This document shows, piece by piece, positions 1,120 through 37,213 of a stretch of 48,613 bases of DNA. The notes under the pieces were generated by a model, which saw nothing but the letters and a program-made list of their open reading frames with translations, did no database searches and had not been told where the DNA came from. How positions within the stretch are numbered: position 1 is the first letter of the stretch; every line of letters begins with the position of its first letter. The position numbers and the translations under genes are program-made. The DNA comes from Promethearchaeota archaeon. GTDB lineage: Archaea; Asgardarchaeota; Lokiarchaeia; Sigyniarchaeales; SOKP01. The DNA lies in contig JBHLLU010000031.1 of the NCBI GenBank assembly GCA_048938895.1, forward strand, positions 1 through 48,613. Reading direction: 5' to 3'.

Positions 1120-2049
1120 GTGGTAAAAAAGAAAGAAACTGGTCGCAACAACACTGAACCAAATAATAATATCATTAAAGAAGAAATCAATTTACAATTG
1201 CATTGGTATTTACCTGCATTTTTCGTGATTTACTTCGCATCATTTTTGATACCCGCTGTTATTTTTATGTTATTTATAATGATGTTTTATTTACCGTTCT
1301 TCTTAGAAGTGAGAGATTTTATCTCACTCTTTACAAATATACCCTCTCTAATCGCTGCTTTAACTATACCCATAATAATTGTAATTTGTTATTTAATACA
1401 TCTATTTGTAGTGGCTTTAATTACTCGATGGTTCTGGAGTATTTCAGAAAAAAGATCTCCTTCCAAATCTGGGATAATTCCAAGAAATATTCCAAGTAAA
1501 ACTCTAAATTATTATCATTTTCGAAGTTTTATAATTAAATACCCTAAGAATGCGTTTTCAAGAGGACCTTTTCCTTGGTTGGTAAAATGGATGTTTAATT
1601 TTACCAAGACTAATAAAATTGGAAGATCTTCAGTGATAGAAGAACAAATCGCAGGAGATCGGTTTGTATCTATAGGAGAAAATTGTTATCTTGGAACAAA
1701 TATTGCAATTAGTTCCCATGCTGTAGAAGGGATTTTTGGAAATATATCATTCGCTAGGGTGAATATTGGAAATAATGTAACTACAGCAGGTTTCAATTGT
1801 ATCGCGCCTGGAGTGGATACAGGTGACAATTCTTGGTGGTTCCCGATGACAGGTGCTACAAAATACAACATTTTAAAAGGTAACAACTTCTATCTCGGTA
1901 CTCCCTTGAGAAAGATCTTCAAAAGAAAAGTTATAGAGTATTTACAAATATCTGAAGATGATTTAAATAGAGCAGAAGAATTAAATAAAATTTTAGAATC
2001 AAGAATGGTTAAAAAAAAGAAAAAGAAAGAGCTCTTATCTAATGACTGA
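1120..2049 (+). CDS. Membrane-bound left-handed beta-helix (hexapeptide) acyltransferase-like protein, module type A
   Basis: Two TM segments, PSKSGIIPRN, hexapeptide repeats (SIGENCYLG, NIGNNVT), SSHAVEG and a YLGTP end motif. GTG start; overlaps the next gene by 8 nt. Confidence 0.8.
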   Translation: MVKKKETGRNNTEPNNNIIKEEINLQLHWYLPAFFVIYFASFLIPAVIFMLFIMMFYLPFFLEVRDFISLFTNIPSLIAALTIPIIIVICYLIHLFVVALITRWFWSISEKRSPSKSGIIPRNIPSKTLNYYHFRSFIIKYPKNAFSRGPFPWLVKWMFNFTKTNKIGRSSVIEEQIAGDRFVSIGENCYLGTNIAISSHAVEGIFGNISFARVNIGNNVTTAGFNCIAPGVDTGDNSWWFPMTGATKYNILKGNNFYLGTPLRKIFKRKVIEYLQISEDDLNRAEELNKILESRMVKKKKKKELLSND

Positions 2050-2914
2050 AGATAATGAAAAAGTTGACTATACCATTGATTTCGTTACTAGCAGTGCAAT
2101 TAGCAAAATAGGTATAAAATTTTTGGTATTTTACATTCCAACCTTATGGATCGCAGGCTATATGGCTACAGCTGTCTTTTTTGACGTATCTCAGATATTA
2201 GATAACTGGGTACTAACTATGTTTTTAATCCCATTTTGGATTTTCATTTTGTATTTTATTTTCATTTTTGGAATAGCAATAACTACTAAAGCATTCCTAC
2301 TAATGATAAATATGATTCACAAACCTAAAGAAGGAGTGTTCTTAGCTAAGGAAGGAGATCAGGATTATGAATTTTGGAGACTACGTGTTGAATTGAAAAA
2401 ACTAGTTTTTTGGTTAATGAATAATGGACCATTGCCTTGGATCGTGATGTGGGGTTTCAGATGGTTAGGTATAAGAGTAGATTTTTCCAGTCATATGCAA
2501 GATGCTTGGGCTGACGGTGGTTTTATTGAATTTGGTCGAAACGTAACAGTTGGGCAAGGAGCAGTAGTTATGAGTTCTATGATCGTAGGAAAATATTTGA
2601 TTATAAAGAAAGTCATTTTAGGAGATTATACTGTCGTTGGGGGGGTTTCTAATATCGCCCCTGGTACGAAAATGGGAAAAGAGTCTGTATTAGGTGCTTT
2701 TAGTTCTACAATTCCTAATCAATTTATAGAACCGGGTTGGATTTACTTAGGACCATTGATGGCAAGAAAGTTAAAGCCAAATAAGTACGCAGAACAGAGA
2801 CGTGACTTAATTTACAAAAAGCATGTAGAAGAAGAGATCAAATATGAAGTTAAACAAGAAGTTAATATCGATGAGGATAAGAAAAAATTACTCAATAATA
2901 ATTTGGGGGAGTAA
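2042..2914 (+). CDS. Membrane-bound LbH acyltransferase-like protein, module type B
   Basis: DFVTSSAIS, two TM, HKPKEGVF..D.DYEFW and LbH repeats (FGRNVTVGQGAVV, LGDYTVVGG, PGTKMGKESVLGA). Confidence 0.8.
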   Translation: MTEDNEKVDYTIDFVTSSAISKIGIKFLVFYIPTLWIAGYMATAVFFDVSQILDNWVLTMFLIPFWIFILYFIFIFGIAITTKAFLLMINMIHKPKEGVFLAKEGDQDYEFWRLRVELKKLVFWLMNNGPLPWIVMWGFRWLGIRVDFSSHMQDAWADGGFIEFGRNVTVGQGAVVMSSMIVGKYLIIKKVILGDYTVVGGVSNIAPGTKMGKESVLGAFSSTIPNQFIEPGWIYLGPLMARKLKPNKYAEQRRDLIYKKHVEEEIKYEVKQEVNIDEDKKKLLNNNLGE

Positions 2915-2919
2915 ATTAG

Positions 2920-3768
2920 ATGTCAGTCCCTTCTAGCCTAAATGTTGGACCAAACACCACTCTAACTTTAGCTAAAAAAAGATACATGCTTTTTTATTTT
3001 ATTCTTATATGGGTTAGTATATTTACTATTCAGTTTGAATTTTGGCTATTTTGGGCTGTATATGAAATAGAAAAATTCATCCATTTCTACCTTTTTTTAC
3101 CTCTCTTAATTTTTATAATGTATTTATCAGCGATTTTAGTTTCGCTTTTATTTGCTAAATTTTTCCTTGTTATTGTCAATTTAATCCATAAACCACGAGA
3201 AGGAGTATTTCTTCGGCATCGTTCCGATAGAGACTATAGGTACTGGAGTATGAGAAGTGTAATTAAAAAATGGCCTTTATGGCTTTCTCATAAATTTCCA
3301 TTCCCTTTCATTAACAATATATGTTTGAAAATGTTTGGGATTAGAACAAAATACTCTAATTCTCTCTTTGAGGGGTTTGTTGATACAGAGTTCCTCCAAT
3401 TTGGAAAAAATATCATCGTCGGTCAGAGTGCTATTATCCAATCAGCTGTGATAGTAGGAAACTTATTTATAATAAGAAAAACAATTATTGAGGATAATAC
3501 AGTAATTGGTGCTCACAGCATTGTAATGCCAGGAACTCATATGAACAAAAATTCTATTTTAGCAGGGAGTTCTATGACATCTGTGGGGCAAGAATTAGAA
3601 GAGGATTGGGTTTATCTAGGGGCCCCTGCAAAAAAATATAAAAAAAATGTATTTTTTGATGAAGGATTAGAAGACATAATTGCTAAACACTTAGAAGGCG
3701 AAATTGTGACAGACATAAAACCTGAAGATCTTTATATAATGCGTAGAGATAAAGATACTAATATTTAA
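2920..3768 (+). CDS. Membrane-bound LbH acyltransferase-like protein, module type C
   Basis: MSVP..VGP start, two TM, HKPREGVF..DRDYRYWS, LbH repeats and WVYLGAPAKK. Confidence 0.8.
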   Translation: MSVPSSLNVGPNTTLTLAKKRYMLFYFILIWVSIFTIQFEFWLFWAVYEIEKFIHFYLFLPLLIFIMYLSAILVSLLFAKFFLVIVNLIHKPREGVFLRHRSDRDYRYWSMRSVIKKWPLWLSHKFPFPFINNICLKMFGIRTKYSNSLFEGFVDTEFLQFGKNIIVGQSAIIQSAVIVGNLFIIRKTIIEDNTVIGAHSIVMPGTHMNKNSILAGSSMTSVGQELEEDWVYLGAPAKKYKKNVFFDEGLEDIIAKHLEGEIVTDIKPEDLYIMRRDKDTNI

Positions 3769-3780
3769 ATTTCTAAGAAA

Positions 3781-4566
3781 ATGAAAGTAGGTTATATTCA
3801 GACAAATCCTATATTTGGTGAAAAGGAAAAAAATTTAAGGGAAGTAGAGAAACTATCAGCTAATTTGAAAGCTGATATAATAGTCTTGCCAGAATTATTT
3901 GCTACAGGTTACGCTTTTAAATCAAAGGAAGAAGTATATTCATTAGCTGAAAGTATCAGTGACACCACGTCCCAGTTTTTAATAGAGTTAGCTCAAGATA
4001 AAGAAAATATTATTATTGGAGGATTTGCAGAAAAAGAAGGAAAAAAATTATTCAATTCTGCGTTGATCGTTTCAGAAAATGGAGTAGTTGGGACCTATAG
4101 AAAACTTCATTTATATTATAAAGAAAAATTATGGTTTAATCCTGGAGATAAACCGTTAAAAGTATATAATGTTAATGGTTTTAATATTGGTATAATGATT
4201 TGTTTCGATTGGATATTCCCAGAAACTGCACGTACTCTAACACTTTTGGGTGCAGAGATAATCGCTCATCCTGCAAATCTAGTTCTTCCGTATTGTCAAA
4301 AAGCTATGGTAACAAGATGTTTAGAAAATCGAGTTTATGCAATAACAGCAAACAGAATTGGACAAGAAAATCGTGGAAATGATAAATTTAAATTTACAGG
4401 GGGTAGTCAAATTACGTCATTTGATGGGGCTATTCTCTCTTCAGCACCTTTAGATCAAATTTTTGTAGGAACTGCAGAAATTGATGTAAGTTTGGCAAGA
4501 AATAAAAAATTAAATGAATATAACGACCTATTGGGAGACAGGCGTAATAAATTCTATTCAAATTAA
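3781..4566 (+). CDS. Nitrilase/carbon-nitrogen hydrolase family protein
   Basis: Glu-Lys-Cys triad motifs LPELF, YRKLHLY and ICFDW. Confidence 0.92.
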   Translation: MKVGYIQTNPIFGEKEKNLREVEKLSANLKADIIVLPELFATGYAFKSKEEVYSLAESISDTTSQFLIELAQDKENIIIGGFAEKEGKKLFNSALIVSENGVVGTYRKLHLYYKEKLWFNPGDKPLKVYNVNGFNIGIMICFDWIFPETARTLTLLGAEIIAHPANLVLPYCQKAMVTRCLENRVYAITANRIGQENRGNDKFKFTGGSQITSFDGAILSSAPLDQIFVGTAEIDVSLARNKKLNEYNDLLGDRRNKFYSN

Positions 4567-4601
4567 ATATATATACCTCATTTCAAAGAAGATATGTACT
4601 A

Positions 4602-5522
4602 ATGAAAATTGGTTATCCCTGTATTAATTTAACCTTAAAATGTAGAAGTAGTCGTACATTTCGTTTGAAAAATTACTCTGAAGAAAGATTAGCCCAGACA
4701 GTTTCTAATAATTTGAAATGTTTACAAAAAATATTAGAATTTAATGTTGACAATAAAATCTTATTTTTTAGAATTACATCTGATTTAGTTCCTTTTGCGT
4801 CCCACCCTGTGATGGAATTCAATTGGCAGGATTATTTTCAGACAAAATTCAAATCTATAGGTAATTATATTAAGAACAATGATATCAGGATCACAATGCA
4901 TCCAGGACAATATACCATCATTAATTCTATGAAGGAAGAAGTATACAAGAACAGTTTAAAAGAATTAGCTTATCATACCGAGATTTTAGAGTTGTTGGGA
5001 TTAGATAATACCGCTAAGATTATAACCCATGTTGGTGGAGTATATAATGATAAACAAACTAGTATGAATAGATTCATTCAACGATATCATTCTTTAGACA
5101 ATAGGATTAAAAAATATTTTGTAATAGAGAACGATGATAAAAGTTATAATATAAGAGATTGTCTCTCAATTTTCGAGAAAACAGAAATACCTGTAATCTT
5201 TGATTTATACCACCATAAATGTAATAGTACAGACGATAAAGCTCAGGATATTATAGAGAACGTATTTCAGACTTGGAAACCAGAAGATGGGCTTCCAATA
5301 GTACATTACAGCTCAGAACACCCTATAAAAGGAAAATGTAGCCATGCGGATTCTATTGATCTACAACATTTCAAGTCTTTTATTGAATCAACATTAAATT
5401 ATGATTTTGATATTATGATTGAGATTAAAAACAAAGAGATTAGTACTTTAGAAGCTATAAATGCAATTAAAAGCGATGAGAGATTAAAAATTGTAAATAA
5501 TGATAAATTACTTCAAATATAA
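4602..5522 (+). CDS. uvsE: UV-damage endonuclease UvsE/UVDE
   Basis: MKIGYPCIN, FRITSDLVPFASHP, RITMHPGQY, IENDD, FDLYHH, HYS, HAD and DIMIEIKNKE motifs. Confidence 0.95.
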   Translation: MKIGYPCINLTLKCRSSRTFRLKNYSEERLAQTVSNNLKCLQKILEFNVDNKILFFRITSDLVPFASHPVMEFNWQDYFQTKFKSIGNYIKNNDIRITMHPGQYTIINSMKEEVYKNSLKELAYHTEILELLGLDNTAKIITHVGGVYNDKQTSMNRFIQRYHSLDNRIKKYFVIENDDKSYNIRDCLSIFEKTEIPVIFDLYHHKCNSTDDKAQDIIENVFQTWKPEDGLPIVHYSSEHPIKGKCSHADSIDLQHFKSFIESTLNYDFDIMIEIKNKEISTLEAINAIKSDERLKIVNNDKLLQI

Positions 5523-5540
5523 AATCACCTTACAAGAATT

Positions 5541-6011
5541 ATGGCAATATTAAAATTACCAAAAATGGATGATGATGAAATAATACAAGCAATCCAAACT
5601 GCAAATATTTGCAGGATCGCATTTATTGATGAAATCTATCCTTACATTTCTCCGTTTCAATACACTTATCTTAACAATACATTATATTTTCATTTTACAG
5701 ATTATGGAAAGAAAAAGCAGATATTGAAAAAGAATAATAATGTATGTGTATCAATTGAACATCTTGAAGAAGATTTAAGCTCTTTTTATTTTATATCGAT
5801 GCAGGGTAAGTTAGCTCTTATTGAAAACGAGCAAGAAAAGTCACAAGTATTAGAAATAATGGTAAAGAATGCGAGAAAAGTCTATTCTCAGAATTTTTTA
5901 TCTGCTCATGGATATGAAAAAGAAAATGGATGGGATGTTTTAACTAAAAAAAACCAAATTCTCTATAAATTTATACAAATGCGAGAACCAATAGGATTAA
6001 AATCTCCTTAA
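5541..6011 (+). CDS. Pyridoxamine 5'-phosphate oxidase-like (NimA-type) flavin-binding protein
   Basis: CRIAF....PYISP..Y.Y....LYFH....GKK...L..N.NVC pattern. Confidence 0.8.
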   Translation: MAILKLPKMDDDEIIQAIQTANICRIAFIDEIYPYISPFQYTYLNNTLYFHFTDYGKKKQILKKNNNVCVSIEHLEEDLSSFYFISMQGKLALIENEQEKSQVLEIMVKNARKVYSQNFLSAHGYEKENGWDVLTKKNQILYKFIQMREPIGLKSP

Positions 6012-6112
6012 CTTTCTTTAATTGTTTTATTCTTAATTTGGTAAGGTTGCGCTATAACCAAATGAGTAGAATTCAAGCATTTTTTATATTTTACTCAAAC
6101 CAAATCATATTG

Positions 6113-6583
6113 TTAATTTAATTTTTCAAGAATCGCAATTATCTCTTTGTTTTCTGGAATATCATCCATGGAATCGCCATAATATGCATATCTAATTATT
6201 CCTTTTTTATCAATAAGAAGGGTAGCAGGCATTCTTCCCATTTTTAAAGGCTTTACTTCTTGTTTTAACATTTTATTTACCTTCTTTTTTTTGTTAAAAT
6301 ATATGGGATATTTATGTGCGAAATTTTTTTCGAATTTCTGGGCAGCCTTTAAATCATCTGGTAAAATTGCTAAAATTTCAGTGGATTTATCAAGAAATTT
6401 TTCATAATCTGCACTAATTTTTTGAGCATAAGCTTTTGCATAGGGTCAACTTTTACTTCTGAATAATATAATTAATACATTACTTACACCCTCAAAATCA
6501 TGGATAGCAGTTGTTTCGCCTCGAGAATTCGTTAATCTGAAGTTTTTTATTTTAGTTCCGACAAGATTAAATTTATCTTTCAT
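6113..6583 (-). CDS. Peroxiredoxin-like (AhpC/TSA, thioredoxin fold) protein with in-frame UGA at codon 46; probable selenoprotein (absent from the ORF track)
   Basis: Manual translation from ATG 6583: MKDKFNLVGTKIKNFRLTNSRGETTAIHDFEGVSNVLIILFRSKS-U(TGA 6448-6446)-PYAKAYAQKISADYEKF...GRMPATLLIDKKGIIRYAYYGDSMDDIPENKEIIAILEKLN, TAA at 6115-6113. The UGA falls at the redox-Cys position. Confidence 0.85.
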
Positions 6584-6688
6584 ATTAAATCACTATTATT
6601 GATTATAATTTAAACATTGATTTTAATTTATAAAACAACTAGCGTAGTTTTAGTTGATTTCTAATAACTAATATTGTTCTTTTCTATC

Positions 6689-6707
6689 AAAAAAAAAGAA
6701 AAAAAAA
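6689..6707 (-). terminator. Archaeal oligo-U terminator candidate after the heliorhodopsin gene
   Basis: Near-pure T tract on the minus strand immediately after the stop codon. Confidence 0.5.
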
Positions 6708-7532
6708 TTATTGTGGCTGTAAAATACCTCCAAATGCTAACCATGCCAATAATGATTTGGCTACTAAGCTTAAAATAATGTAAACTCGTTCACCAAAAAG
6801 ATAATCTCTCCAAGGACCAACACCTTTATATTGAAGTACCATATTTATTGCAAAAATATTAAACAATACTAAATATGAATAAAAAATTGCATATACAAAA
6901 TCAGGTGGTCCATCTGTATTGGAAGTAACTCCATAAAAGTAGCCAATTATTACAATCCAAGGAATTGCTCCAGAGATACATCCCATTAGAAAAGGCTTCC
7001 AATTGGTCTTTTCTGTATATTGATTAACTAATTCCATTACGTAACCGAATAGAATCATCGTAGCATTTAATACAAATATCATTATAAGAGACCAAAAGTC
7101 CCATACTCCAAACAATAACGCAATGAACATAATCATAATTGAACTAGATAAAGCGTACTCATACCAGCGATATGGATTAAATCCTTTTTGTAGATTTGCG
7201 TTATATCTTTCATTTAATGGATAAGCAATTAACAAATGCGCTAACGCAGACAATAATAGAAAAGATGCTAATATAGCCCCCACATATGAAAATGTAAATA
7301 ATACAGTTGGATTGGGATTGATCTCGAAGACTCCGGGAGAAACTTCTTCAAAATTTAAGTAGAAAGTATATATATCTCTTGAAAAGTCTAAAATAAGTCC
7401 AACAGTAAGCATCAAAATCCCCTGTATCAAATGTAGAAAACCCATATTTCTATTAAACTTTTTCAGATAATCAAAAGAGATCCTCGAATTTGAAATAATT
7501 TCTTGACGTTCTTTGTAATTCATTTTAATCAA
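6708..7532 (-). CDS. Heliorhodopsin
   Basis: Seven TM segments; N..MGFLHLIQG, NPYRWYEYALSSSIM, FAINM.LQY and GE..YIILSLVAKSLLAW (retinal Lys). The real start may be ATG at 7523. Confidence 0.95.
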   Translation of the reverse strand: MIKMNYKERQEIISNSRISFDYLKKFNRNMGFLHLIQGILMLTVGLILDFSRDIYTFYLNFEEVSPGVFEINPNPTVLFTFSYVGAILASFLLLSALAHLLIAYPLNERYNANLQKGFNPYRWYEYALSSSIMIMFIALLFGVWDFWSLIMIFVLNATMILFGYVMELVNQYTEKTNWKPFLMGCISGAIPWIVIIGYFYGVTSNTDGPPDFVYAIFYSYLVLFNIFAINMVLQYKGVGPWRDYLFGERVYIILSLVAKSLLAWLAFGGILQPQ

Positions 7533-7823
7533 TTTATCAAGTTTTTAAATTTCTTTTTATAATATTAATTATTCAAGATAAGAACTTAAATAATTTTTTT
7601 AGGATTTATTTATTTTTTTAATATAAAAATTTTAAGATAAATGAAACAAAGCTAAATCTTTAATAATCTATACAAATAAAGATTAAATTATTTTTTATTC
7701 TATAAAAATACTTTAATTAGTAATTATTGAAATTCATTCAATTCACTTTTCAGTTTATATTTATTATTACGGAGAATTAAATAGTCAAATATCTCTTTTT
7801 GATTAGTATTAATCATTTAAGAT

Positions 7824-8327
7824 GTGATCAGAAAAATGTCTGCAATAATTGAAGAATTTTCACTTGAACAGCATGAAAAAATTGCAAAGGATAGCTTTAA
7901 TAAAACATGGGATTATCTTGATAAAAAAGATCGCAGTGAAGAAGATGATCTCAATATGATCCATTCTGCTCATGCTTCAAGATATCATTGGGGGATTCTT
8001 GTTGCTGAAGGAAAGGGAACAGTACTAAATCTTCAAAGGGGAGAATGGATGTTGTCGCATGTTTATACAATTCTAGAAAGACCTGAAGCAGCAATTTTTC
8101 ATGCAAAAACCTGTTTGGATTTAACTAAGAAGAATAACATTGAAGATTTTGATTTAGGTTTTGCTTATGAAGCAATGGCTAGGTCTTCAGCTTTAAGGAA
8201 AAATGAAGCTGATTTTAAGAAATATTTTGATTTAGCTAAAAAGGCAGCAGATAAGATTAAGAATAAAGATGACAAGGATTATTTTCTTGGAGAATTAGAA
8301 GGAGGAAATTGGTTTGGTTTAAAGTAA
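7824..8327 (+). CDS. Conserved helical hypothetical protein
   Basis: FNKTWDYLDK..RS.EDD..MIHSAHASRYHW, RGEW..S.VY and DLGFAYEAMAR resemble a widespread uncharacterised family. Confidence 0.7.
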   Translation: MIRKMSAIIEEFSLEQHEKIAKDSFNKTWDYLDKKDRSEEDDLNMIHSAHASRYHWGILVAEGKGTVLNLQRGEWMLSHVYTILERPEAAIFHAKTCLDLTKKNNIEDFDLGFAYEAMARSSALRKNEADFKKYFDLAKKAADKIKNKDDKDYFLGELEGGNWFGLK

Positions 8328-8448
8328 TTTTAATTTAATTTTATTTACCTTTTTTCTTATTATTGCATAAATTATGCATTTAGATAACAAATTTAAAATG
8401 GAAACATGAATTAATGTCTTTTTAAATTAATGATAAATTAATGCAGAA

Positions 8449-9456
8449 ATGAAGGCTGCTGTTTTTGATGGGCAAAATTTAATAGTAAAAACTGTAAAAG
8501 ACCCTAAAATTAATGATTTTCAGGTTTTAATTCAAGTTAAATCTGTTGGTATTTGTGGGACAGATTTAGCAATAGTAAAGAAATCATTACCTACTCCTAC
8601 TCCTATTATACTTGGTCATGAATTTGCAGGGGATGTGGTTGAAGTAGGGAGTGAGGTTGATCAGAAATGGTTGAATAAAAGAGTAACTTCTGAAATAAAT
8701 AGTAATATTGATTTTAAGTGTCATTTCTGCAAACAGGGTAATCATACACAATGTATTTCTCGTAAAGCACTAGGAATTGATATAGATGGGGCTCTTGCTG
8801 AATATATTGCAGTGGATTCTTATATGCTTCATGAAATACCTGATTCTATTTCTTATGACTGTGCAACTTTTATTGAACCTTTAGCAGCTGCATACCAAAC
8901 TTTTGAAGTAATGCCTTTAAATGAAAATGACCATGTAATGGCCGTTTTCGGTCTTGGTAAATTAGGACTCTTACTAATTCAGGTTGCTTTACAAAAGGGT
9001 CTAACCTTATTTGGAGTAGATGGTTCTCATAAAAAAATTGCTTTAGCTAAAAAATTAGGAGTTCATTACCCTTTAAATCGATTTGATGGACCAAATATAC
9101 CTAATAAAATAATAAGTCTAACGGGAGGATTGGGTGCAGATATAGTTGCTGATACTACTGGCAATCCAGTGGCTTTAAAAGATGTGATTGCATCTTGTCG
9201 GACTCGGGGGAAAATACATATCAAGAGCACGCATGGTATTGAAACCCCTATTAATTTAACTGATGTTGTAGTCCGTGAGTTAACAATATATAGTAGTAGA
9301 TGTGGTCCCTTTGATATAGCTATTGAAGGTTTAAAATCTGGAAAAATTAAGGTTGACAAATTAATCTCTAAAAAATACAAATTAGAAGAAATAGAAAAAG
9401 CTGTAAGTTCTTTTGAAGATATCCATCACCATATTAAAACAATTATCCATATTTAA
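8449..9456 (+). CDS. Zn-dependent alcohol/threonine dehydrogenase (MDR family)
   Basis: GICGTD, GHEFAG.V, structural Zn loop (D..C..C.......C, first ligand Asp), EPLAA and GLGKLG. Confidence 0.92.
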   Translation: MKAAVFDGQNLIVKTVKDPKINDFQVLIQVKSVGICGTDLAIVKKSLPTPTPIILGHEFAGDVVEVGSEVDQKWLNKRVTSEINSNIDFKCHFCKQGNHTQCISRKALGIDIDGALAEYIAVDSYMLHEIPDSISYDCATFIEPLAAAYQTFEVMPLNENDHVMAVFGLGKLGLLLIQVALQKGLTLFGVDGSHKKIALAKKLGVHYPLNRFDGPNIPNKIISLTGGLGADIVADTTGNPVALKDVIASCRTRGKIHIKSTHGIETPINLTDVVVRELTIYSSRCGPFDIAIEGLKSGKIKVDKLISKKYKLEEIEKAVSSFEDIHHHIKTIIHI

Positions 9457-9565
9457 TATTCAAAATGAACTTTAAAACTGAAACAACGAATTTTTTAGAG
9501 AAAAAAAATTAAATAATAAATATAGCTTAAAAAATATAAAAAATTCCTTAAGGATCTAATCTGTT

Positions 9566-11383
9566 ATGGCAGTGAAACCAAGTATAACAACAGAAAACGA
9601 GTCAGAGACTAAATTTATTAAAGAAGAAATTAAATTTCAATATTTCTGGTATTTATTTACTTTATTTGCTGTTTACTTAGGATCATTAATTATTCCTGCT
9701 CTTTTGTTCATTGCATATTTGATTTTCTTTTTCTTGCCAAATTTCCTCGAGATAAAAAATTTTGTTGTACTTTTTACTGAATTCAAACCTCTCATAGCAT
9801 GGATATTTATGCCATTAGTCCTAATTGGATGCTACATCCTTCGTATTTTCCTTACGGCATTAATCACTCGAGGTTTCTGGAGTTATTGTCAAAGAAAATC
9901 ACCTTCAAAAGAGGGGATAATCCCAAGAAATTTCCCAAGCAGAATCTTGAAATACTACCATATCCGAAGTTTTCTAATTAAGCAAGGAAAGAATACTTTT
10001 ACGAAAGGAATGTTTCCTTGGCTCATTAATTGGTTCTATAATTTTGTTGGGACAAATATTATTAGAAAAGGCACTACCCTTGAAGAATCTCCAAGCAATG
10101 ATAAATTTATTGAAGTAGGAGAGAATTCCTACGTTGGAGTGAATTCCTCTCTGGCAAGTCATGTTGTTGAGGGTATCTTTGGGAATATTTCTTATTTCAA
10201 GGTAAAAGTAGGAAATAATTTTACAGCAGCAGGGATGAATGTCGTCGGTCCTGGTTCGGAAATCAATGATAATGCGTTTTTACTCCCATTGGCTTCAGCA
10301 ACTAAGCATAGTGTTATTAAAGGAGATAACTTTTACTGGGGAATACCATTAAGGAAAATTTTTAGAAAAAAAACGATGGAGTTATTAGATCTTTCCGTAA
10401 AAGATTTGGAAAGGAACAAAAATATTGAAGGTTATAAGGATAATCCTCAATTAATAGCATCAGAATCAAAGAGTACATCTGTAGTGAACTCTAATCCACA
10501 TGAAGATAGTATAAATGATGATAATATTCATACATTAACAAAAGAAGATTTAGCTTTAGATTTCACAACCAGTAGTTCAATTTCAAGAGTTAATATAAAA
10601 TTCTTAGTAGTCTATATTCCCATTTTCTGGCTTTCAGGTATGGTGACGACAATTTTTTTTTACACATTTACAGAATTAGCATTCTCTGTACAATATTGGT
10701 ATATTTATGCATTTTTCTTACCAACTATAATCTTTATTATGTGGTTTATTTTTATTATGACGAGTATTTTTTTCAGCAAACTCTTTCTTTTATTAATTAA
10801 CCTTATACACAGGCCCAGAGAAGGAATTTTTAAAGCAGAAATAGGGGATAAAGATTTTGAGTTTTGGTGTTTGAGAACAGAACTAAAGAAAATTGTATTA
10901 TGGCTTATACGTAATTGGCCTTTACCATGGATGGATATCTTAGCATTCAAGTGGTTTGGGATTAAAATGAGTCTTGACAGTACTATGTGGGATTCTTGGT
11001 GTGATAGTGAGTTTATTAAGTTAGGACGTAATGTCCTGATAGGTCAGGGTGCAACTGTTATGTCATCATTGGTAATAGGGAAATATTTGTTGATTAAAGA
11101 GGTTATTCTTGGAGATTATACGGTTATCGGTGGAGAAGCTACTATTTCACCGGGAACTATAATAGGTAATGATTCAGTAGTTGGTGCCTTAAGTACAACT
11201 ACTTACAATCAAATTCTTGAACCTGGATGGATCTATTTTGGAATTCCTGTGATTAAACTAAAAGAAAACAAATATGCTGAGTTAAAAAGGGAGGTACTTA
11301 TGAAAAAAGATGTAGATGAAGAGAAAAAGTTTGAAGTTGAGCACGAGGTAAATATAGATGAAGATAAAAAAGGGTTTATTTAA
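9566..11383 (+). CDS. Membrane-bound LbH acyltransferase-like protein, A+B module fusion
   Basis: The N-half matches 1120-2049 (PSKEGIIPRN, ASHVVEGIFGNI) and the C-half matches 2042-2914 (DFTTSSSIS, GDKDFEFW); a polar linker joins them. Confidence 0.82.
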   Translation: MAVKPSITTENESETKFIKEEIKFQYFWYLFTLFAVYLGSLIIPALLFIAYLIFFFLPNFLEIKNFVVLFTEFKPLIAWIFMPLVLIGCYILRIFLTALITRGFWSYCQRKSPSKEGIIPRNFPSRILKYYHIRSFLIKQGKNTFTKGMFPWLINWFYNFVGTNIIRKGTTLEESPSNDKFIEVGENSYVGVNSSLASHVVEGIFGNISYFKVKVGNNFTAAGMNVVGPGSEINDNAFLLPLASATKHSVIKGDNFYWGIPLRKIFRKKTMELLDLSVKDLERNKNIEGYKDNPQLIASESKSTSVVNSNPHEDSINDDNIHTLTKEDLALDFTTSSSISRVNIKFLVVYIPIFWLSGMVTTIFFYTFTELAFSVQYWYIYAFFLPTIIFIMWFIFIMTSIFFSKLFLLLINLIHRPREGIFKAEIGDKDFEFWCLRTELKKIVLWLIRNWPLPWMDILAFKWFGIKMSLDSTMWDSWCDSEFIKLGRNVLIGQGATVMSSLVIGKYLLIKEVILGDYTVIGGEATISPGTIIGNDSVVGALSTTTYNQILEPGWIYFGIPVIKLKENKYAELKREVLMKKDVDEEKKFEVEHEVNIDEDKKGFI

Positions 11384-11396
11384 TCTTAATAGAAAG

Positions 11397-11801
11397 CTAC
11401 TCTATTGTTTTTATTGATAATTCTTCCTTTAAATATCGTTTAATCTCTCTACAAGTCTTCTTAAACATATCCTTATTTTCATAAAATAGACTTTTCCTAG
11501 GACAATCATCATCAAGCTTGCATTTCTTAATATCTAAGTCAAATATTAAAGGATAAAACGCACATCCACGAGGCCGATAATCATAAATCATACACTCTTT
11601 TCGAGAGGGTTCAAAGAATATGCAATGTTCTTTATAATTCTTTAATTGATATAGGTTAGCGTTATTTAGAAATATAAAATCATTTTCTCTAAGATTAGCA
11701 TGATAATTGGTGATGATTATATCAATATCCTTTCGAGAAAGAATCATTTCTGTATCTAAACAGCAATTCCCACAGTCTTTACACTTATTTTTCATATACA
11801 T
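11397..11801 (-). CDS. YkgJ family (CxxCxxCC) Fe-S/Zn cluster protein
   Basis: CKDCGNCC, CIFF, C.IYDYRP.GC.FYP and C.LDDDCP. Confidence 0.85.
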   Translation of the reverse strand: MYMKNKCKDCGNCCLDTEMILSRKDIDIIITNYHANLRENDFIFLNNANLYQLKNYKEHCIFFEPSRKECMIYDYRPRGCAFYPLIFDLDIKKCKLDDDCPRKSLFYENKDMFKKTCREIKRYLKEELSIKTIE

Positions 11802-11923
11802 CCTACAATTTTTCTTCGATTCAAAAATTTAAAAGGAAACGAAATATCTATTAAAGTATTATAAGTATCAATTGCTTTTTAATTGAATAAAACTTATAGT
11901 AAATTTATTAGAACTATGATATA

Positions 11924-13789
11924 TTGGTAAATATGAGTGAAGAATCTGAAGATGGCGAGCCAGCCAATCAGAAAGATGTCATAAAGGAAGATGTAAATCT
12001 TCAGTTTCACTTGTATATATTAGTTTTTCTTTGTATTTATTATTCCTCATGGGTAGTTCCAGGCATTTGTTTTTTTGTATACTTTTTGAGATTTTTTTTT
12101 CCATTTGTATTAGAAACTGCTAATTTTATATATCTTTTCACACAACCAGGACCATTGTTAAATTTCCTTTTAATGCCTTTAGTCTTAATAGGGTGTTATC
12201 TACTTCATTTATTCATGATTGGTTTAGTTTCTCGAATTTTGTGGAATTTTACTGAAAAAATGTCTCCTTCAAAATCTGGAGTAATCCCGCGAAATGTTCG
12301 TAGTAGGACGGCAAACTACTATCACCTCCGAGGGTTTATGATCAAATACGGAAAGAATTCCTTTACAAAAGGTGCGCTTTCGTGGTTAAGTAATTGGTTT
12401 TTTAATTTCGTAGGAACTTGTAAAATTGGAAAGGGTACAACTTTAGAAGAATCTTTGGTTAATGATAAATTTCTTAATATCGGATCAAATTGTTATATTG
12501 GGGTCAATTCTGCTTTAACTAGTCATTTAGTCCAAGGTGTTTTTGGTAATATTACCTATTTTGAAATTAATATTGGTGATAATGTAACTGGTTCAGCTAG
12601 GGCTGGTATTGGCCCAGGGGGGGAGGTTGGTGACAATTCTTATTTTTTACCATTAGCCTCAACAAGTAAACATAGTGTTATCAAAGGTGACAATTATTAT
12701 TGGGGACTCCCAATGAGAAAGATATTTAGAAAGAAAATTATAGAATACTTGGAGCTAACACCAAAGGAGCTTGAAATAAATGAAAATATCGAGGGGTATA
12801 AGGATAAGCAGCTATTGAAGAAGTTAAAAGCAGAAAATGTCTTAACTACAACTTTTGAACAACCAGAAGAGGAGGAATCTAAAATAGAGCAAGAAGAAGA
12901 AAAATTATCTATTGAAGAACTAACAGAGCAAGATTTAGCTCTTGATTTTACTACAAGTTCAGCGATCAGTAGAGTAAACGTAAAATTTTTAGCAGTCTAT
13001 ATTCCAATTTTCTGGTTAGCAGGATTAATTGTTTCGATATTTTGGTATTCGTATTTAATTGATTTACCAGATAATTTGCTTCTGATTATAATATTCCTTC
13101 CTTTTGCTATACTTGGCTCTATTTACTTCTTTATTCTATCGTGTATTCTTTTCAGTAAATTATTTTTAATTTTGGTAAACTTAATACATAAACCAAAAGA
13201 AGGGATATTTAAAGCAGAGATTGGAGATAAGGATTTTGAATTCTGGATGTTGAGAACGGAAATAAAAAAAATTGCTTTATGGTTTATGCGTAATTCTCCC
13301 CTGCCATGGACTGATGTTGTTGCGTTGAAATTATTTGGAATTGATATGGATTCTTCTAGCCATCTGTATGATGCGTGGTGTGACGCGGAATTCATTAAAT
13401 TCGGTAGGAAAACTTTAATCGGTCAAGGAGCTAATGTAATGTCTTCAATGGTAGTCGGGAAATATTTAATTATTCAAAAGATCATTTTCGATGATTACAT
13501 CATGGTTGGCGGTTGGGCGACAATTGCTCCAGGAACAATAATAGGAAAAGAATCGGTTGTTGGAGCACTTACTTCGACGACGGTGAACCAAATTTTGGAT
13601 CCAGGATGGGTTTATTTTGGGTTTCCGGCAATTAAAATGAAAGAGAATAAGTATGCAGAGGAAAGAAGAGAAGTTATCTTAAAACGTGATGTAGATGACG
13701 CGAAAAAATATGAAATGGAACATAAATTAAATATTGAAAAAGAAAAGAAGGAATTAATTAATCAGGAAAAAGAGGAGGAAAAAACATGA
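11924..13789 (+). CDS. Membrane-bound LbH acyltransferase-like protein, second A+B fusion
   Basis: Collinear paralog of 9566-11383 (TSHLVQGVFGNI, DFTTSSAISRVN). Overlaps the next gene by ATGA. Confidence 0.82.
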   Translation: MVNMSEESEDGEPANQKDVIKEDVNLQFHLYILVFLCIYYSSWVVPGICFFVYFLRFFFPFVLETANFIYLFTQPGPLLNFLLMPLVLIGCYLLHLFMIGLVSRILWNFTEKMSPSKSGVIPRNVRSRTANYYHLRGFMIKYGKNSFTKGALSWLSNWFFNFVGTCKIGKGTTLEESLVNDKFLNIGSNCYIGVNSALTSHLVQGVFGNITYFEINIGDNVTGSARAGIGPGGEVGDNSYFLPLASTSKHSVIKGDNYYWGLPMRKIFRKKIIEYLELTPKELEINENIEGYKDKQLLKKLKAENVLTTTFEQPEEEESKIEQEEEKLSIEELTEQDLALDFTTSSAISRVNVKFLAVYIPIFWLAGLIVSIFWYSYLIDLPDNLLLIIIFLPFAILGSIYFFILSCILFSKLFLILVNLIHKPKEGIFKAEIGDKDFEFWMLRTEIKKIALWFMRNSPLPWTDVVALKLFGIDMDSSSHLYDAWCDAEFIKFGRKTLIGQGANVMSSMVVGKYLIIQKIIFDDYIMVGGWATIAPGTIIGKESVVGALTSTTVNQILDPGWVYFGFPAIKMKENKYAEERREVILKRDVDDAKKYEMEHKLNIEKEKKELINQEKEEEKT

Positions 13790-14730
13790 GCATTCCTAAT
13801 ACAATGAGAGTTGGGCCCTTTACCCCAACTGTTTTAGCAAAGAAATGGTATTTAATATTTTATTTTCTACTTATTTGGGCAAGTATAATTCCACTCCTAT
13901 TGGAACTATGGATATATTGGCAATTGTTATGGAGTAATACCAGGCCAGTTCATTTTTATACGTATTTACCGCTTTTAGGTTTTCTAATGTACGTAACAAT
14001 CGTATTTGCCGCAATATTTTTCGCTAAAATTTTACTGATTATAATTAATGCAATTCATAAGCCTAGAGAGGGTGTATTTTTAAGAATTCCTGCCGACAAG
14101 GACTTTTGTTATTGGAGTCTTCGTAATACTATAAAGAGATGGCCAGTTTGGCTTGCACATAGATTTCCCTTTCCTGGAATATTAGATAATATTTGCTTTA
14201 AAGCTTTTGGTGTGAAAACCAAAATTTCGAATTCCTTATTCGAAGGATGGGTTGATACTGAAATGATTGATTTTGGAAAGAATGTAGTAGTTGGACAAGG
14301 AGCTATAATACAGTCTGCTTGTATTGTTGGAAACCTTCTAATAATTAGAAAAACAGTTATTGAAGATGGAGTTAGAATTGGCTCACATTCAATAGTTATG
14401 CCTGGTACTAAAATAGGGTACAATTGTATATTAGCTGCGAATTCCGTGACGACCGTTGGGCAAGTATTAGAAAAAGAGTGGATTTATATCGGCATTCCTG
14501 CAAAAAAATTCAAAAGAAATTATTTCTTTGAAGATGAACTTGAAGATAAATTAGGTCAAGTGGAGGATGTAGAAGCCTTAAGGGAAAAATATGAGGAAAT
14601 TTATGTTAAGAGATATGATGAACTCACATATAAGGAAAAGAAGGAATTAAAAAAAGAAAAGAAAGAAGAAGAGAAGAAACGGTTTGAGCTTGAAGAGCTT
14701 GATGATTTTGATGATGGATTCAATATCTAA
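13786..14730 (+). CDS. Membrane-bound LbH acyltransferase-like protein, second module type C
   Basis: Paralog of 2920-3768 (MSIP...VGP, HKPREGVF, SNSLFEG.VDTE, WIYIGIPAKK) with a long charged tail. Confidence 0.8.
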   Translation: MSIPNTMRVGPFTPTVLAKKWYLIFYFLLIWASIIPLLLELWIYWQLLWSNTRPVHFYTYLPLLGFLMYVTIVFAAIFFAKILLIIINAIHKPREGVFLRIPADKDFCYWSLRNTIKRWPVWLAHRFPFPGILDNICFKAFGVKTKISNSLFEGWVDTEMIDFGKNVVVGQGAIIQSACIVGNLLIIRKTVIEDGVRIGSHSIVMPGTKIGYNCILAANSVTTVGQVLEKEWIYIGIPAKKFKRNYFFEDELEDKLGQVEDVEALREKYEEIYVKRYDELTYKEKKELKKEKKEEEKKRFELEELDDFDDGFNI

Positions 14731-14758: not shown

Positions 14759-16588
14759 TTAAAAGTTAAATTTCTGCTTTTGGATACTATTATAGATTTC
14801 TCTTGTCAACAGTTTATATTCCGAGTTTTCTGGGAGTTTGATATACAAGGGATCTTCAATAATATTAATGTCAAAACCTTCCTTTTTGAGATTTAATTTT
14901 TTAAATTTAAAGCTGTGAGTAGTTACAAGCTCTGATTTGAGTCTTAGAAAAATGGGAATCGCATAAGGTGCTAAATTTTTTTTTAATATCTCCATCAATT
15001 TTTGAAAATTGAGATTATCGATGTTTGATTCAGGTACAATTGCGGCCATTCCTGCCCTTCCATCTGTATGTGGAATTTTTACTCCATATACCGAAGACAT
15101 TGAAATTTGATCAAACACATTAAGTATTTCTTCAACTTCTGTGGTCGATACATTGTGTCCTTTCCATCGGAAGGTATCTCCTAATCGATCAACAAATTGA
15201 GCATGATTACAACCTTGATCTCGAACTAAATCTCCTGTATTAAACCATTCATCTCCTTTTCTAAAAACATTCCTGAAAATTTTTGCTTCTGTTGCTGCTT
15301 CATCTGTATATCCTGCGAACTTATTAATACCTGAATTATCACCAAGGAGTAGTCCAACTTCACCTCTTTTAACCCTTTTCATGAAACCTTTTTCATTTCT
15401 TACTGGTTTTTCTTCTTCTGCATCATATTCGACAATTGCATACGTTCCCGCTCCACGTCCTACAGTACAATCAAAATTTAATAAATTCATAAATCCAACA
15501 TTACCTTCAGATGAACCATAGAATTCCCCAACCAGAGGTATATCAAACCGTTCTTTAAATTCCTTCCAAATTTCTGGTCGAAGACCATTACCTATTACAA
15601 CTCTTATTGAATTATCTTTATCATTTGGTTTAGGGGGTTCATTCACTAAATAACGACAAATTTCTCCGACATAGTTGAATGCGGTTGCATTATATTTACG
15701 ACAGTCGTCCCAGAACTGACTGACACTAAATTTACGTGCTAAGGCTAAAGTACCACCACTTAATAAAATAGAAGACCATCCTGTCATAAGAGCTGTTCCA
15801 TGAAAGAACGGTAAGGGAATATACATTGTATCTTCTGGAGTAAAGTCAGCAAATAAATTTGCAAACATATAGCCAGGAATAATCACCCTTCGATGAGTAA
15901 GGCGTGCCGCTTTAGGCAAGCCTGTGGTCCCAGAAGTAAATAAATATGCCAATACATCTGTATTTAAAATTTCGGTAGTAATGGACGGATTTTCTTTTGG
16001 AAAATCTTTGACAACTGAAGGAAGGTCAATAAATCCTTCAGGAATATCCATATCACCATAATCTGGTATAAAACAGAATTTTACAGAATCAACTAAATTT
16101 AGCTCAGAACTAACTTTTTTAAAAGCATCATAACATTCCTCTCCAATAATGATGATTTTACCTGGGGTTAGATTAAGACAATGAATTAAAGGTTTCTGAC
16201 GTAAGTCAGTATTTATTAAAGAAGAAATTACTCCAATTTTGGCATTAGCTGTATATACAAGTAAAAATTCAAGACGATTTTTAATCAGAACTTCTGCTAC
16301 ATCACCTTTTTTTAACCCTAATGATATGAAATAATTGGCATACTGGTTGACTAATTCATTAAATTGCTTATATGTAAGGGTAGTGTCTTCAAATTTTACT
16401 GCAAAATTGTTCGAAAATTGGTTGGCATTTTCTTCAACGAAAAAACCCCATGATCTATTTTCTGCAGGAGGATTTTGAGCAAGTTCTTGAATACGTGGGC
16501 CATACTTTAACATCCTTTCTTGGAATCTTCGACTAAATTCTTTAATATCAATAAGATTTGATTCTTTTTGTTTGGAAGTTTCTAACAT
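14759..16588 (-). CDS. Long-chain acyl-CoA synthetase, FATP/VLACS type
   Basis: YLFTSGTTGLPKAA, EFYGSSEGN, WFNTGDL and FVDRLGDTFRWKGHNVSTTEVE. Confidence 0.95.
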   Translation of the reverse strand: MLETSKQKESNLIDIKEFSRRFQERMLKYGPRIQELAQNPPAENRSWGFFVEENANQFSNNFAVKFEDTTLTYKQFNELVNQYANYFISLGLKKGDVAEVLIKNRLEFLLVYTANAKIGVISSLINTDLRQKPLIHCLNLTPGKIIIIGEECYDAFKKVSSELNLVDSVKFCFIPDYGDMDIPEGFIDLPSVVKDFPKENPSITTEILNTDVLAYLFTSGTTGLPKAARLTHRRVIIPGYMFANLFADFTPEDTMYIPLPFFHGTALMTGWSSILLSGGTLALARKFSVSQFWDDCRKYNATAFNYVGEICRYLVNEPPKPNDKDNSIRVVIGNGLRPEIWKEFKERFDIPLVGEFYGSSEGNVGFMNLLNFDCTVGRGAGTYAIVEYDAEEEKPVRNEKGFMKRVKRGEVGLLLGDNSGINKFAGYTDEAATEAKIFRNVFRKGDEWFNTGDLVRDQGCNHAQFVDRLGDTFRWKGHNVSTTEVEEILNVFDQISMSSVYGVKIPHTDGRAGMAAIVPESNIDNLNFQKLMEILKKNLAPYAIPIFLRLKSELVTTHSFKFKKLNLKKEGFDINIIEDPLYIKLPENSEYKLLTREIYNSIQKQKFNF

Positions 16589-19885: not shown

Positions 19886-20761
19886 ATGATATACAAAGTA
19901 ATGATAATTAAAGCTAGTGGTATACTATGTTATTCTAAAACATTTTACGGAGATGATAAGATAGATGATGATTTTATTAGTGGATTTCTAACTGCTATAT
20001 TAGATATTTCTGAGAAAATAGGGGGTGGAGAAATAAGATCATTAAATTTCAGAAATTTTAATATTAACTATTCTTATGATGATGAAAAACTTTGTATTTT
20101 TATAATAATCGCGGATATTAATGATCCTGAAGAGGAGTTAAAAGAGAAAATAGGAGAATTGAAAAGTGAGTTCATGGATCAATATCGGGAAAGTTTTATA
20201 CGTTGGGATGGTAATATCTCTAAATTTGAAAAGTTTGATGAATTCACTGAACAAAATACGTATCTACCTCCTAAAATTTTACTGATCGGTGAGGATGGAG
20301 TTGGAAAAACTTCAATTCTAAATTTATTTCCTGGGGAGCTTCTAATAGAATTAGATGATGATATGAATGAAATTATACAGAAATCGGTTAAATTATCTAA
20401 TTTCAAAAGGATAAAGAAGTGTGCATTAAGAGAACTCAATGTTGAAGATATATTAAATAATCCAAAAGGATATACACAGACTTTAGAATCCGCTAATATT
20501 ATTTGTTTTGTTACTAATTCAGGTGCGTCCAATTTAAGCAGAACAAGGAACTATTTTTCCCTATTAGAATCAAAAGCGAACAAAGCAAATTTTTATGTTA
20601 TCGCAAACTTTCAAGATCTGCAAGAATTATCTTTTAACCCAGAGAAAATAGAAGAACTCTTTGGAATTAAAACATATGGCTTTTCAGCTATATTAGATAA
20701 TGCTAGAGAAGAGATATCTTCAATTTTATTTGATATGTTAAGTAAAACTATATTGGAGTAA
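19886..20761 (+). CDS. Longin-like domain fused to a small GTPase-like domain
   Basis: N-terminal II..SG...Y...F......DDDFISGFL.AI...S..IGGGEI.SL longin pattern; P-loop GEDGVGKTS; G4-like ANFQD; G5-like FSA. Confidence 0.8.
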   Translation: MIYKVMIIKASGILCYSKTFYGDDKIDDDFISGFLTAILDISEKIGGGEIRSLNFRNFNINYSYDDEKLCIFIIIADINDPEEELKEKIGELKSEFMDQYRESFIRWDGNISKFEKFDEFTEQNTYLPPKILLIGEDGVGKTSILNLFPGELLIELDDDMNEIIQKSVKLSNFKRIKKCALRELNVEDILNNPKGYTQTLESANIICFVTNSGASNLSRTRNYFSLLESKANKANFYVIANFQDLQELSFNPEKIEELFGIKTYGFSAILDNAREEISSILFDMLSKTILE

Positions 20762-21288: not shown

Positions 21289-21290
21289 AA

Positions 21291-22175: not shown

Positions 22176-22237
22176 TCAGTAAAATTTTATAATTAGAAAA
22201 ATATAATGAAAAATATCAGAATAAAAAGTGATTTTTC

Positions 22238-35876: not shown

Positions 35877-35913
35877 GAAATTCAAAGTTTATAAAAAGAA
35901 GAGGTGAAGAATT

Positions 35914-37164: not shown

Positions 37165-37213
37165 TCAAAAATTATTTTAAATCAATTTTAATTACTTTTT
37201 AAGGTAAATTAAC

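Follow-up and report, generated by a model that had tools for sequence, protein, structure and literature searches.

Stand-alone, split Pls/PosA-like membrane beta-helix modules in three arrangements on a contig of a Promethearchaeota archaeon

The terminal, 'polymerisation' domain of the Pls/PosA-type synthetases is the closest described system to the genes reported here; in the AlphaFold model of PosA (PMC10522769), six membrane helices lie under three packed left-handed beta-helices (LbHs), and every pair of transmembrane (TM) segments is connected to its LbH through two helices and a strand. We analyze a 48,613-nt stretch of contig from a Promethearchaeota archaeon (GenBank assembly GCA_048938895.1, contig JBHLLU010000031.1; the whole stretch is referred to as the window, and further loci, genomes and database representatives by the prefixes L, G and P), in which six open-reading frames (ORFs) constitute eight modules of two TM segments and a hexapeptide LbH, belonging to three types, A, B and C. 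We document the module types, their order and fusions, their Pls-type homology, a pattern of histidine conservation and model support for docking between subunits. With moderate confidence, we put forward that A, B and C form a 1:1:1 heterotrimer with one active site, using a probable acyl-CoA donor and a putative membrane-associated acceptor.

LbH acyltransferases and membrane pseudo-trimers of the Pls type are already known, and what is new in this locus is their split form, proposed to be heterotrimeric and single-site. Stand-alone relatives of the Pls/PosA domain were not found in the literature, subscription journals lying mostly outside the search, and searches on TIGR02353, Lokiarchaeal hexapeptide acyltransferases, cryo-electron microscopy of Pls and Pls homologues devoid of adenylation domains found nothing relevant. 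Sequence and fold searches of a PDB copy likewise yielded no solved structure of the Pls/PosA polymerisation domain.

Module types, arrangements and fixed order

The first set comprises three separate genes, A1 (1120..2049, +; 309 aa), of type A with two TM segments, two helices and an LbH, B1 (2042..2914, +; 290 aa) and C1 (2920..3768, +; 282 aa), with an 8-nt overlap between A1 and B1 and a 5-nt gap between B1 and C1. Types A and B are fused in AB2 (9566..11383, +; 605 aa; A half ~1-325, B half ~326-605), which has no C gene of its own, and in AB3 (11924..13789, +; 621 aa; A half ~1-330, B half ~331-621), which overlaps the C-type gene C3 (13786..14730, +; 314 aa) by 4 nt (ATGA). Every module in the window contains two hydrophobic helices followed by Hexapep/LbH matches, and each chain holds one or two modules, chains with three being found among relatives only (P0124, P0125). 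All-against-all blastp separates the types, with identities of 43-48% between A modules (E 1e-105), 48-54% between B modules and 55% between C modules, compared with 30-36% between B and C and 21-24% between A and either of them (E 1e-8 to 1e-16); the similarity among A, B and C modules is far above chance. The eight modules, three types and three arrangements (A, B and C separately, an AB fusion, and an AB fusion followed by C) reported in the earlier note are therefore present at their coordinates, all of them in A-B-C order and with AB2 standing alone.

The sequence motifs attributed to all modules in that note require slight amendment. The junction between the TM and LbH regions reads HKP[KR]EG[VI]F in B and C, in agreement with the proposed P..G.F, and SPSKxG[IV]I in A, where the proline is one position off; for the proposed Y.G.P, tyrosine and glycine are invariant in 8/8 window modules and the proline is variable. 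Since lysine and arginine are few between the TM segments of the window modules (0-2 in the loop) and many after them (3-5 in the 25 residues past TM2), the LbH is predicted to be cytoplasmic. The Pfam Hexapep cut-off (27 bits) is reached by AB2 (44.2) and C3 (39.5), AB3 (26.9), C1 (24.3) and B1 (24.1) coming just short of it and A1 scoring 11.9, and protein atlas labels are limited to 'acetyltransferase/hypothetical'. Among the best 120 database matches, the relatives of C3 are 66-98% identical over their full length and carry Promethearchaeota/Lokiarchaeota labels.

Beyond the window, the source genome contains six more modules on three other contigs, where a C-A fusion precedes a B-like gene, two genes (X and Y) diverge from each other beside a metallophosphoesterase gene, and an A-like gene stands alone (solo A). 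Using C3 as the query on 151 genomes of the phylum, strong matches were obtained in 25/25 genomes of the window's family and 2/2 of its sister family, three other families gave weak matches only (1e-11 to 1e-15) and the remaining families of this sample gave none. In the five genomes examined, the weak matches correspond to scattered single modules (~27-91 bits) and not to trios. A profile census of two complete genomes (G147 and G040) detected exactly 12 modules in each, which in both cases resolve into four sets with three modules apiece. Two are of the A,B,C kind (one of which, in G040, combines an AB fusion with C), one is a [C-A]+B set, and the last is an X,Y pair counted together with a solo A. 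The same census yielded 11 (+1 weak), 18, and 5-6 modules in other genomes.

To describe module order, 154 modules from 44 loci (the window and 43 further loci) of 20 related genomes were typed with type-specific hidden Markov models (HMMs). The 94 resulting neighbour or fusion steps include 39 A>B (16 fused), 33 B>C, 7 C>A (6 fused), 2 A>A and 1 A>C, with 12 being ambiguous between B and C (the third module of [C-A]+B sets and the X/Y pairs). Leaving the ambiguous steps aside, 82 are typed with confidence, and all but three of these (79) follow A>B, B>C or C>A; no B>A or C>B step occurs in the 44 typed loci. Fusions are of the kinds A-B, C-A (P0121, P0122 and others) and C-A-B (P0124, 797 aa; P0125), and AB genes lacking a directly following C are also encountered in related genomes (L042, L045, L048). 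A tree of 63 modules, obtained with a quick IQ-TREE search and SH-aLRT support only, places all A-type modules in one clade (support 100), which takes in the solo A modules and the second halves of C-A fusions, and recovers a B clade (98) and a C clade (96) within a joint B/C clade (98). The order previously described as always A-B-C hence holds for the window and becomes cyclic elsewhere (A>B>C>A), since other parts of the same genome have C-A fusions with B after them. In the lineage that encodes them, the modules are also not scattered independently, being adjacent or fused in this fixed cyclic order and amounting to 12 in both G147 and G040.

A cyclic order, one-to-one fusions between neighbours and module counts in multiples of three are as predicted for a heterotrimer of fixed handedness. 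The same gene order could be read as a pathway if A, B and C were separate homotrimers acting in turn on one substrate. Most LbH enzymes are homotrimers, and one-module relatives stand alone in most bacterial loci examined (75 ORFs <320 aa), but the A-B fusions (16), the C-A fusions (6) and the C-A-B chains tie the types to one another 1:1, and the histidine pattern and structural models discussed below also bear on this alternative.

The X/Y pairs display a further peculiarity. At L012 (4916-7255, -) only one stop codon separates a 245-aa Y module from the in-frame 531-aa metallophosphoesterase behind it, and the arrangement recurs at the matching loci of G008, G049, G077, G132 and G141. The open frame spans 779-780 aa and is interrupted by this one stop, either TGA or TAA depending on the genome; it probably reflects tight operon spacing, though the conserved frame is odd.

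A single histidine per set and the predicted assembly

The conservation of a putative catalytic histidine was read from one column of an alignment of all modules to a single HMM. Among the Asgard sets, this histidine is found in 54/54 A modules, 1/42 B modules (an X module) and 0/46 C modules, as well as in 5/12 ambiguously typed modules, all five being X modules. It corresponds to H200 of A1 (codon 1717-1719) and to H201 in the A half of AB3, the same column holding Ser in B1 and Ala/Ser in C1. Stand-alone three-module chains carry it in module 2 (5/5; modules 1 and 3, 1/5 each). In a sample of 99 Pls/PosA-like nonribosomal peptide synthetases (NRPSs), 96 of which have three detectable modules, it is located in module 3 (93/96) and seldom in module 1 (4/96) or module 2 (3/96). 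Species genomes scanned with the single-chain proteins as queries returned 503 relatives, and 80 loci were kept, containing one ORF with three modules (Propionivibrio) and 75 ORFs of <320 aa with a single module; the histidine is present in 74/75 of these single-module relatives. Four of these loci (L059, L061, L093, L104) bear two separate one-module ORFs, the second module of L093 scoring only 61 bits and the second, same-cluster ORF of L104 lying directly upstream.

A profile of 17 A-type sequences matches E. coli galactoside acetyltransferase (GAT; 1kqa) at E 2.5e-8, aligning the A-type 'S-S-H-x-V-E-G' over 'T-G-H-P-V-H-H', where the aligned histidine is His115 when counted from the printed start residue 63. 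His115 is the catalytic residue of this enzyme, and the H115A variant loses ~90% of conversion (PMC12775004). An equivalent of His115 was found in A, and in neither B nor C. This pattern suggests that A would be the catalytic subunit, with A1 as its putative representative in the first trio, and B and C non-catalytic partners. By the same token, the homotrimeric relatives would have three active sites, and the trios, the single-chain forms and the Pls-type domains would each keep one. The rule of only one His-bearing subunit per set is testable, and it holds equally for the Pls/PosA-like NRPSs.

The absence of the histidine from two of three subunits might also be expected if the trios were not enzymes at all, but structural or regulatory membrane LbH assemblies similar to the gamma-carbonic anhydrase (CA)-like heterotrimer on plant complex I, and complex I CA and CA-like subunits are indeed among the sequence and fold matches. 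We regard this as quite improbable, given that A keeps its histidine without exception over family-wide divergence, that the best solved matches of A are acetyltransferases (1kqa, 2.5e-8) and that no column holding the three Zn-binding histidines of gamma-CAs was seen among the conserved columns.

Co-folding of AB3 with C3 (residues 1-300), each supplied with its own alignment of orthologues, produced an ipSAE of 0.84 (0.85, 0.84 and 0.83 in the individual runs), the best of three controls, all of them unrelated proteins, yielding 0.00; the ipSAE mark used is reached by 116/157 solved complexes and 2/215 mismatched pairs. The runs have at least 81% of contacts in common and a partner pLDDT of at least 81, and C3 is predicted to contact both the A half (62-307) and the B half (333-570) of AB3, through TM and LbH regions alike. 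As a prediction, the model supports binding between AB3 and C3, in line with the co-assembly of A, B and C proposed in the earlier note. AlphaFold2 models were also obtained for C3 (pLDDT 75.8) and for the natural C-A-B chain P0124 (797 aa; pLDDT 78, pTM 0.75), although in the alignment of the latter (A6) separate third-module proteins were seemingly aligned onto module 1 and module 3 rests on two sequences. These models display the LbH strand ladder and the order of elements described for the PosA model, and Foldseek relates them to LbH acetyltransferases with probability 1.00, the best solved matches being the soluble CoA-dependent maltose/galactoside O-acetyltransferases and the N-acyltransferase AntD. 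The PDB searches returned no solved structure of this architecture, the sequence matches of AB3 and C3 being generic soluble LbH proteins only. The predicted docking of C3 on both AB3 halves and the modelling of a natural triple chain as one body argue against separate homotrimers, as does the loss in B and C of a histidine that 74/75 stand-alone relatives keep, and we consider homotrimers acting in turn very improbable.

In the heterotrimer that we favour, each subunit would consist of an N-in/C-in two-TM hairpin, a short strand, two helices and a cytoplasmic LbH, and A, B and C would assemble 1:1:1, their six TM helices forming a base in the membrane and their three LbH prisms the head of the complex. 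The complex would thereby adopt the architecture of the Pls/PosA polymerisation domain, distributed over two or three genes and devoid of adenylation and carrier domains. Because B and C have lost the histidine, a single active site would be located at an interface of A, and B and C would act as a scaffold or in binding the substrate. With 4-5 sets per genome, these would then constitute paralogous complexes with different specificities.

Donor, acceptor and gene neighbourhood

Carrier-protein domains are scarce in the genomes that encode these sets. PF00550 is found in 1/5 near-complete trio-bearing genomes, and the PP-binding domains of the source genome are confined to one 3514-aa ORF on another contig, resembling a type I fatty acid synthase/polyketide synthase (FAS/PKS), which occurs in 2/31 family genomes and was for that reason rejected as a general carrier partner. 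Among the conserved neighbour clusters scanned with Pfam, no protein combining adenylation and carrier domains was found, unclustered neighbours not being part of the scan. A carrier-tethered donor like that of Pls is unlikely as a general rule, because PF00550 is restricted to 1/5 genomes and the FAS/PKS-like ORF to 2/31. Since most set-bearing genomes have no carrier-protein domain, the acyl donor would most likely be a CoA thioester, bound at the cytoplasmic face. We infer this simplest alternative by analogy with CoA-dependent fold relatives, from the absent carrier domains and from nearby CoA ligases. A long-chain acyl-CoA synthetase (14759..16588, -; NF006134, 732 bits) is convergent with C3 and could supply the acyl-CoA donor, but the link is weak, this AMP-forming ligase (FACL) neighbouring the sets in 4 loci only. 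The solo A has an ADP-forming-type CoA ligase nearby in 2 loci, and so do two of the A,B,C sets.

The FAS/PKS-like ORF itself (L138 4430-14974, G000 contig C125) encodes an NMO-type ER, KS, AT, three PP-binding, KR, DH and PPTase domains, and is flanked by genes for an acetyl-CoA carboxylase carboxyltransferase, a biotin carboxylase and a biotin ligase. The source genome is ~1 Mb larger than its congeners and has an estimated contamination of 7.5%, so the FAS/PKS contig may be foreign or a recent acquisition.

The nature of the acceptor is suggested by the single-module relatives, which are mostly bacterial and are hosted by Betaproteobacteria, Myxococcota, Bdellovibrionota, Brocadiia, Poseidoniales and other Asgard families. 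In 11/63 mapped single-module loci, an ORF belonging to one particular cluster is found directly upstream on the same strand, and all members of this cluster that were scanned (6/6) are GT1-like glycosyltransferases; PEP-CTERM proteins, MacB/FtsX and LolA-like genes are also present in the bacterial surroundings. The searches made returned no characterised member of the single-module family. Overall, the 2TM-LbH family looks like one of membrane acyltransferases working beside glycosyltransferases, with the Pls-type synthetases as one specialised branch. By analogy with these bacterial relatives, the acceptor we favour would probably be an amine or hydroxyl of a membrane-associated molecule, for instance of a lipid head group, a lipid-linked glycan or a glycolipid.

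Two of the bacterial contexts are of interest on their own. An Oligoflexia metagenome-assembled genome encodes a 661-aa fusion (L059 5744-7729, +) of an HpnI-like GT2/GT21 lipid glycosyltransferase (TIGR03472, 113 bits, below cut-off) with one 2TM-LbH module, which hints that single-module relatives may acylate glycolipids. A recurrent betaproteobacterial gene cluster (L062, L067, L068, L075, L082, L087, L089, L092 and others) combines GT1 and a one-module 2TM-LbH gene with PEP-CTERM proteins, MacB/FtsX permeases, a LolA-like protein, a giant TPR protein and a ThiF-nitroreductase fusion; to our knowledge, this cluster has no name.

Around the Asgard sets, the conserved neighbours are CxxCxxCC, ADH, DUF6512, DUF1295, ribonucleotide reductase, UvdE, PNPOx, CN-hydrolase and FACL genes. 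The commonest (13 loci, 12 genomes) is the CxxCxxCC protein (PF03692), which in the window (11397..11801, -) is divergent from the AB3-C3 set and whose link may be plain synteny. A carbon-nitrogen hydrolase gene of nitrilase-like type (3781..4566, +) starts 12 nt downstream of C1 and holds the same position in 6 loci of 6 genomes, its link to the trio being uncertain. A class II ribonucleotide reductase with an intein (HNH endonuclease) is encoded beside trios in 11 loci of 11 genomes (e.g. L025 4586-8314, -). An assignment of function from gene neighbourhood was abandoned, these neighbours being conserved within one family only and indicating no pathway.

Several observations weigh against the single-site heterotrimer. 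Its stoichiometry, its one active site, its CoA donor and the class of its acceptor are all inferred, and the case for CoA is made from fold relatives and carrier absence, not from a CoA-binding signature. The Asgard neighbours point to no pathway and may reflect synteny within one family, and the bacterial glycosyltransferase link concerns distant single-module relatives. The co-folding controls were unrelated proteins rather than paralogues or homotrimers, and the high score may express likeness to common solved LbH trimers rather than binding. Moreover, AB2 stands without a dedicated C partner, the order A-A-B-C is read in two loci and an A>C step in one, so that not all sets are clean trios, and G089, with 5-6 modules, has an incomplete complement. 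Lastly, the X modules of the divergent X-Y pairs bear the histidine, as does the unlinked solo A, so that X, Y and solo A, if together in one complex, would bring two His-bearing subunits; because X modules keep the histidine, their X-Y(-solo A) set may be unlike the remaining sets.

A bolder version of the heterotrimer is doubtful, though its consequences would be considerable: the trios may be lineage-specific, asymmetric single-site enzymes transferring CoA-borne acyl (possibly fatty-acyl) or aminoacyl groups to archaeal lipids or lipid-linked glycans, perhaps with processive, Pls-like extrusion of a polymer across the six-helix base. If so, the archaea closest to eukaryotes would possess a new chemistry for modifying lipids or the envelope, and the trios would show the route by which the Pls polymerisation domain arose, a homotrimeric 2TM-LbH enzyme having been duplicated and having lost two of its three active sites. 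For Asgard biology, the sets constitute a gene family expanded to 4-5 putative complexes per genome within one taxonomic order.

Other features of the window are recorded here for completeness. A heliorhodopsin gene (6708-7532, -; PF18761, E 7.6e-98) is situated between the first trio and AB2. A tight same-strand run at 19886-22798 (+) forms a ubiquitin-type cassette, starting with an unassigned 291-aa ORF and including a JAB/MPN peptidase (20761-21288), a ThiF-type E1 (21291-22175) and a UQ_con E2 (22238-22798). Further along are genes for a Ras-family GTPase (30398-30943) and a leucine-rich repeat protein (32118-33155), followed at 34623-39849 (+) by two tandem glutamate/leucine-type dehydrogenase genes and two tandem CCG-domain/4Fe-4S (HdrD-like) genes.

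Relation to Pls/PosA synthetases and other known systems

The relation of the window ORFs to Pls-type synthetases was assessed with TIGR02353, the NCBIfam model for epsilon-poly-L-lysine and delta-poly-L-ornithine synthetases, makers of isopeptide-linked homopolymers; its curated cut-off is 423.1 bits. All ORFs score far below it (A1 12.1, B1 22.6, C1 34.9, C3 37.8, AB2 43.8 and AB3 50.9 bits). Among NCBIfam matches, TIGR02353 ranks first for B1, C1 and C3 and second for the two AB fusions, the match of AB3 covering both TM and LbH regions (residues 368-584 on model positions 18-226). A profile of the eight window modules, searched against 1.84 billion representatives, retrieved 4108 proteins with E<=1e-3, of which 109 have E<=1e-30. 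It matches at 2.1e-25 a 1711-aa NRPS (P0263) composed of an adenylation domain, a T domain and three modules, and also finds several proteins of 650-680 aa made of three modules only (TIGR02353 157-184 bits) and one three-module protein fused to an SDR domain. The similarity to Pls repeats anticipated in the earlier note is borne out by these matches, and so is its view that A, B and C do without adenylation and carrier domains, NCBIfam and Pfam scans of the six ORFs revealing neither AMP-binding nor PP-binding domains. A more specific orthology between A, B and C and the Pls modules C1, C2 and C3 was considered and dropped, the NRPS modules forming unresolved long branches in the tree.

Of the interpretation in the earlier note, an acyl/aminoacyl transferase or a polymerase built like the Pls terminal domain, the part that concerns architecture is supported and extended, and the polymerase function receives no specific support. 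TIGR02353 is the top NCBIfam match of the single-module relatives as well (60-100 bits per module), and likeness to it alone is no argument for polymerase function, because it is common to the whole 2TM-LbH superfamily, one-gene forms included. The trios could nonetheless be true Pls-like polymerases, making a secreted or membrane-bound polyamide from aminoacyl thioesters supplied in trans and joined one after another, and threading the chain through the six-helix base. Such a role would suit the high rank of TIGR02353 for B and C modules (first or second among NCBIfam matches), the one-His-in-three asymmetry that Pls/PosA-like NRPSs also display (93/96, module 3), the AMP-forming ligases near some sets (FACL, 4 loci) and the strong conservation of TM segments, to judge by the full-length identity of C3 relatives. 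We nevertheless deem it unlikely. The scanned neighbour clusters (unclustered neighbours aside) contain no adenylation-carrier protein, PF00550 occurs in only 1/5 of the near-complete trio-bearing genomes, the trios score 12-51 bits against a cut-off of 423, and the likeness to TIGR02353 is stronger in one-module bacterial relatives that lie beside glycosyltransferases. The heterotrimeric acyltransferase remains the reading we prefer. The locus places the Pls/PosA polymerisation domain within a large, unnamed superfamily of 2TM-LbH membrane proteins, and the trios provide a natural 'taken-apart' version of that domain, the subunits of which can be separately expressed, mutated and mixed.

Comparison with other LbH systems helps to delimit these features. 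Within the superfamily, the single-module relatives share with the trios the TM hairpin, the P..G junction and the LbH, but differ in having one gene per locus, in keeping the histidine almost invariably (74/75) and in being presumably homotrimers. The LacA (1kqa) and Maa (1ocx) acetyltransferases have the same LbH fold and rank first among solved structures in both the profile and the Foldseek comparison (TMt 0.55-0.60), with the A-type histidine aligned to the catalytic His115 of LacA; they are soluble homotrimers with three active sites, whereas the trios are membrane-anchored and made of three different chains, two of them His-less. The gamma-CA/CA-like heterotrimer of mitochondrial complex I resembles the proposed trio in placing three different LbH chains on a membrane complex, but has no TM hairpin of the trio kind and relies on Zn chemistry, its LbH similarity being generic. 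The Pls/PosA terminal domain is predicted, like the trios, to comprise three modules of two TM segments, two helices and an LbH, arranged as a pseudo-trimer on a six-helix base, and both keep the GAT-type histidine in one module of three only. In contrast to Pls/PosA, the trios carry their modules on separate genes, or on a two-module fusion plus one gene, have no adenylation or carrier domains and usually no carrier protein in the genome, and bear the histidine in the first module of the A-B-C order, where the Pls/PosA-like NRPSs bear it in the last.

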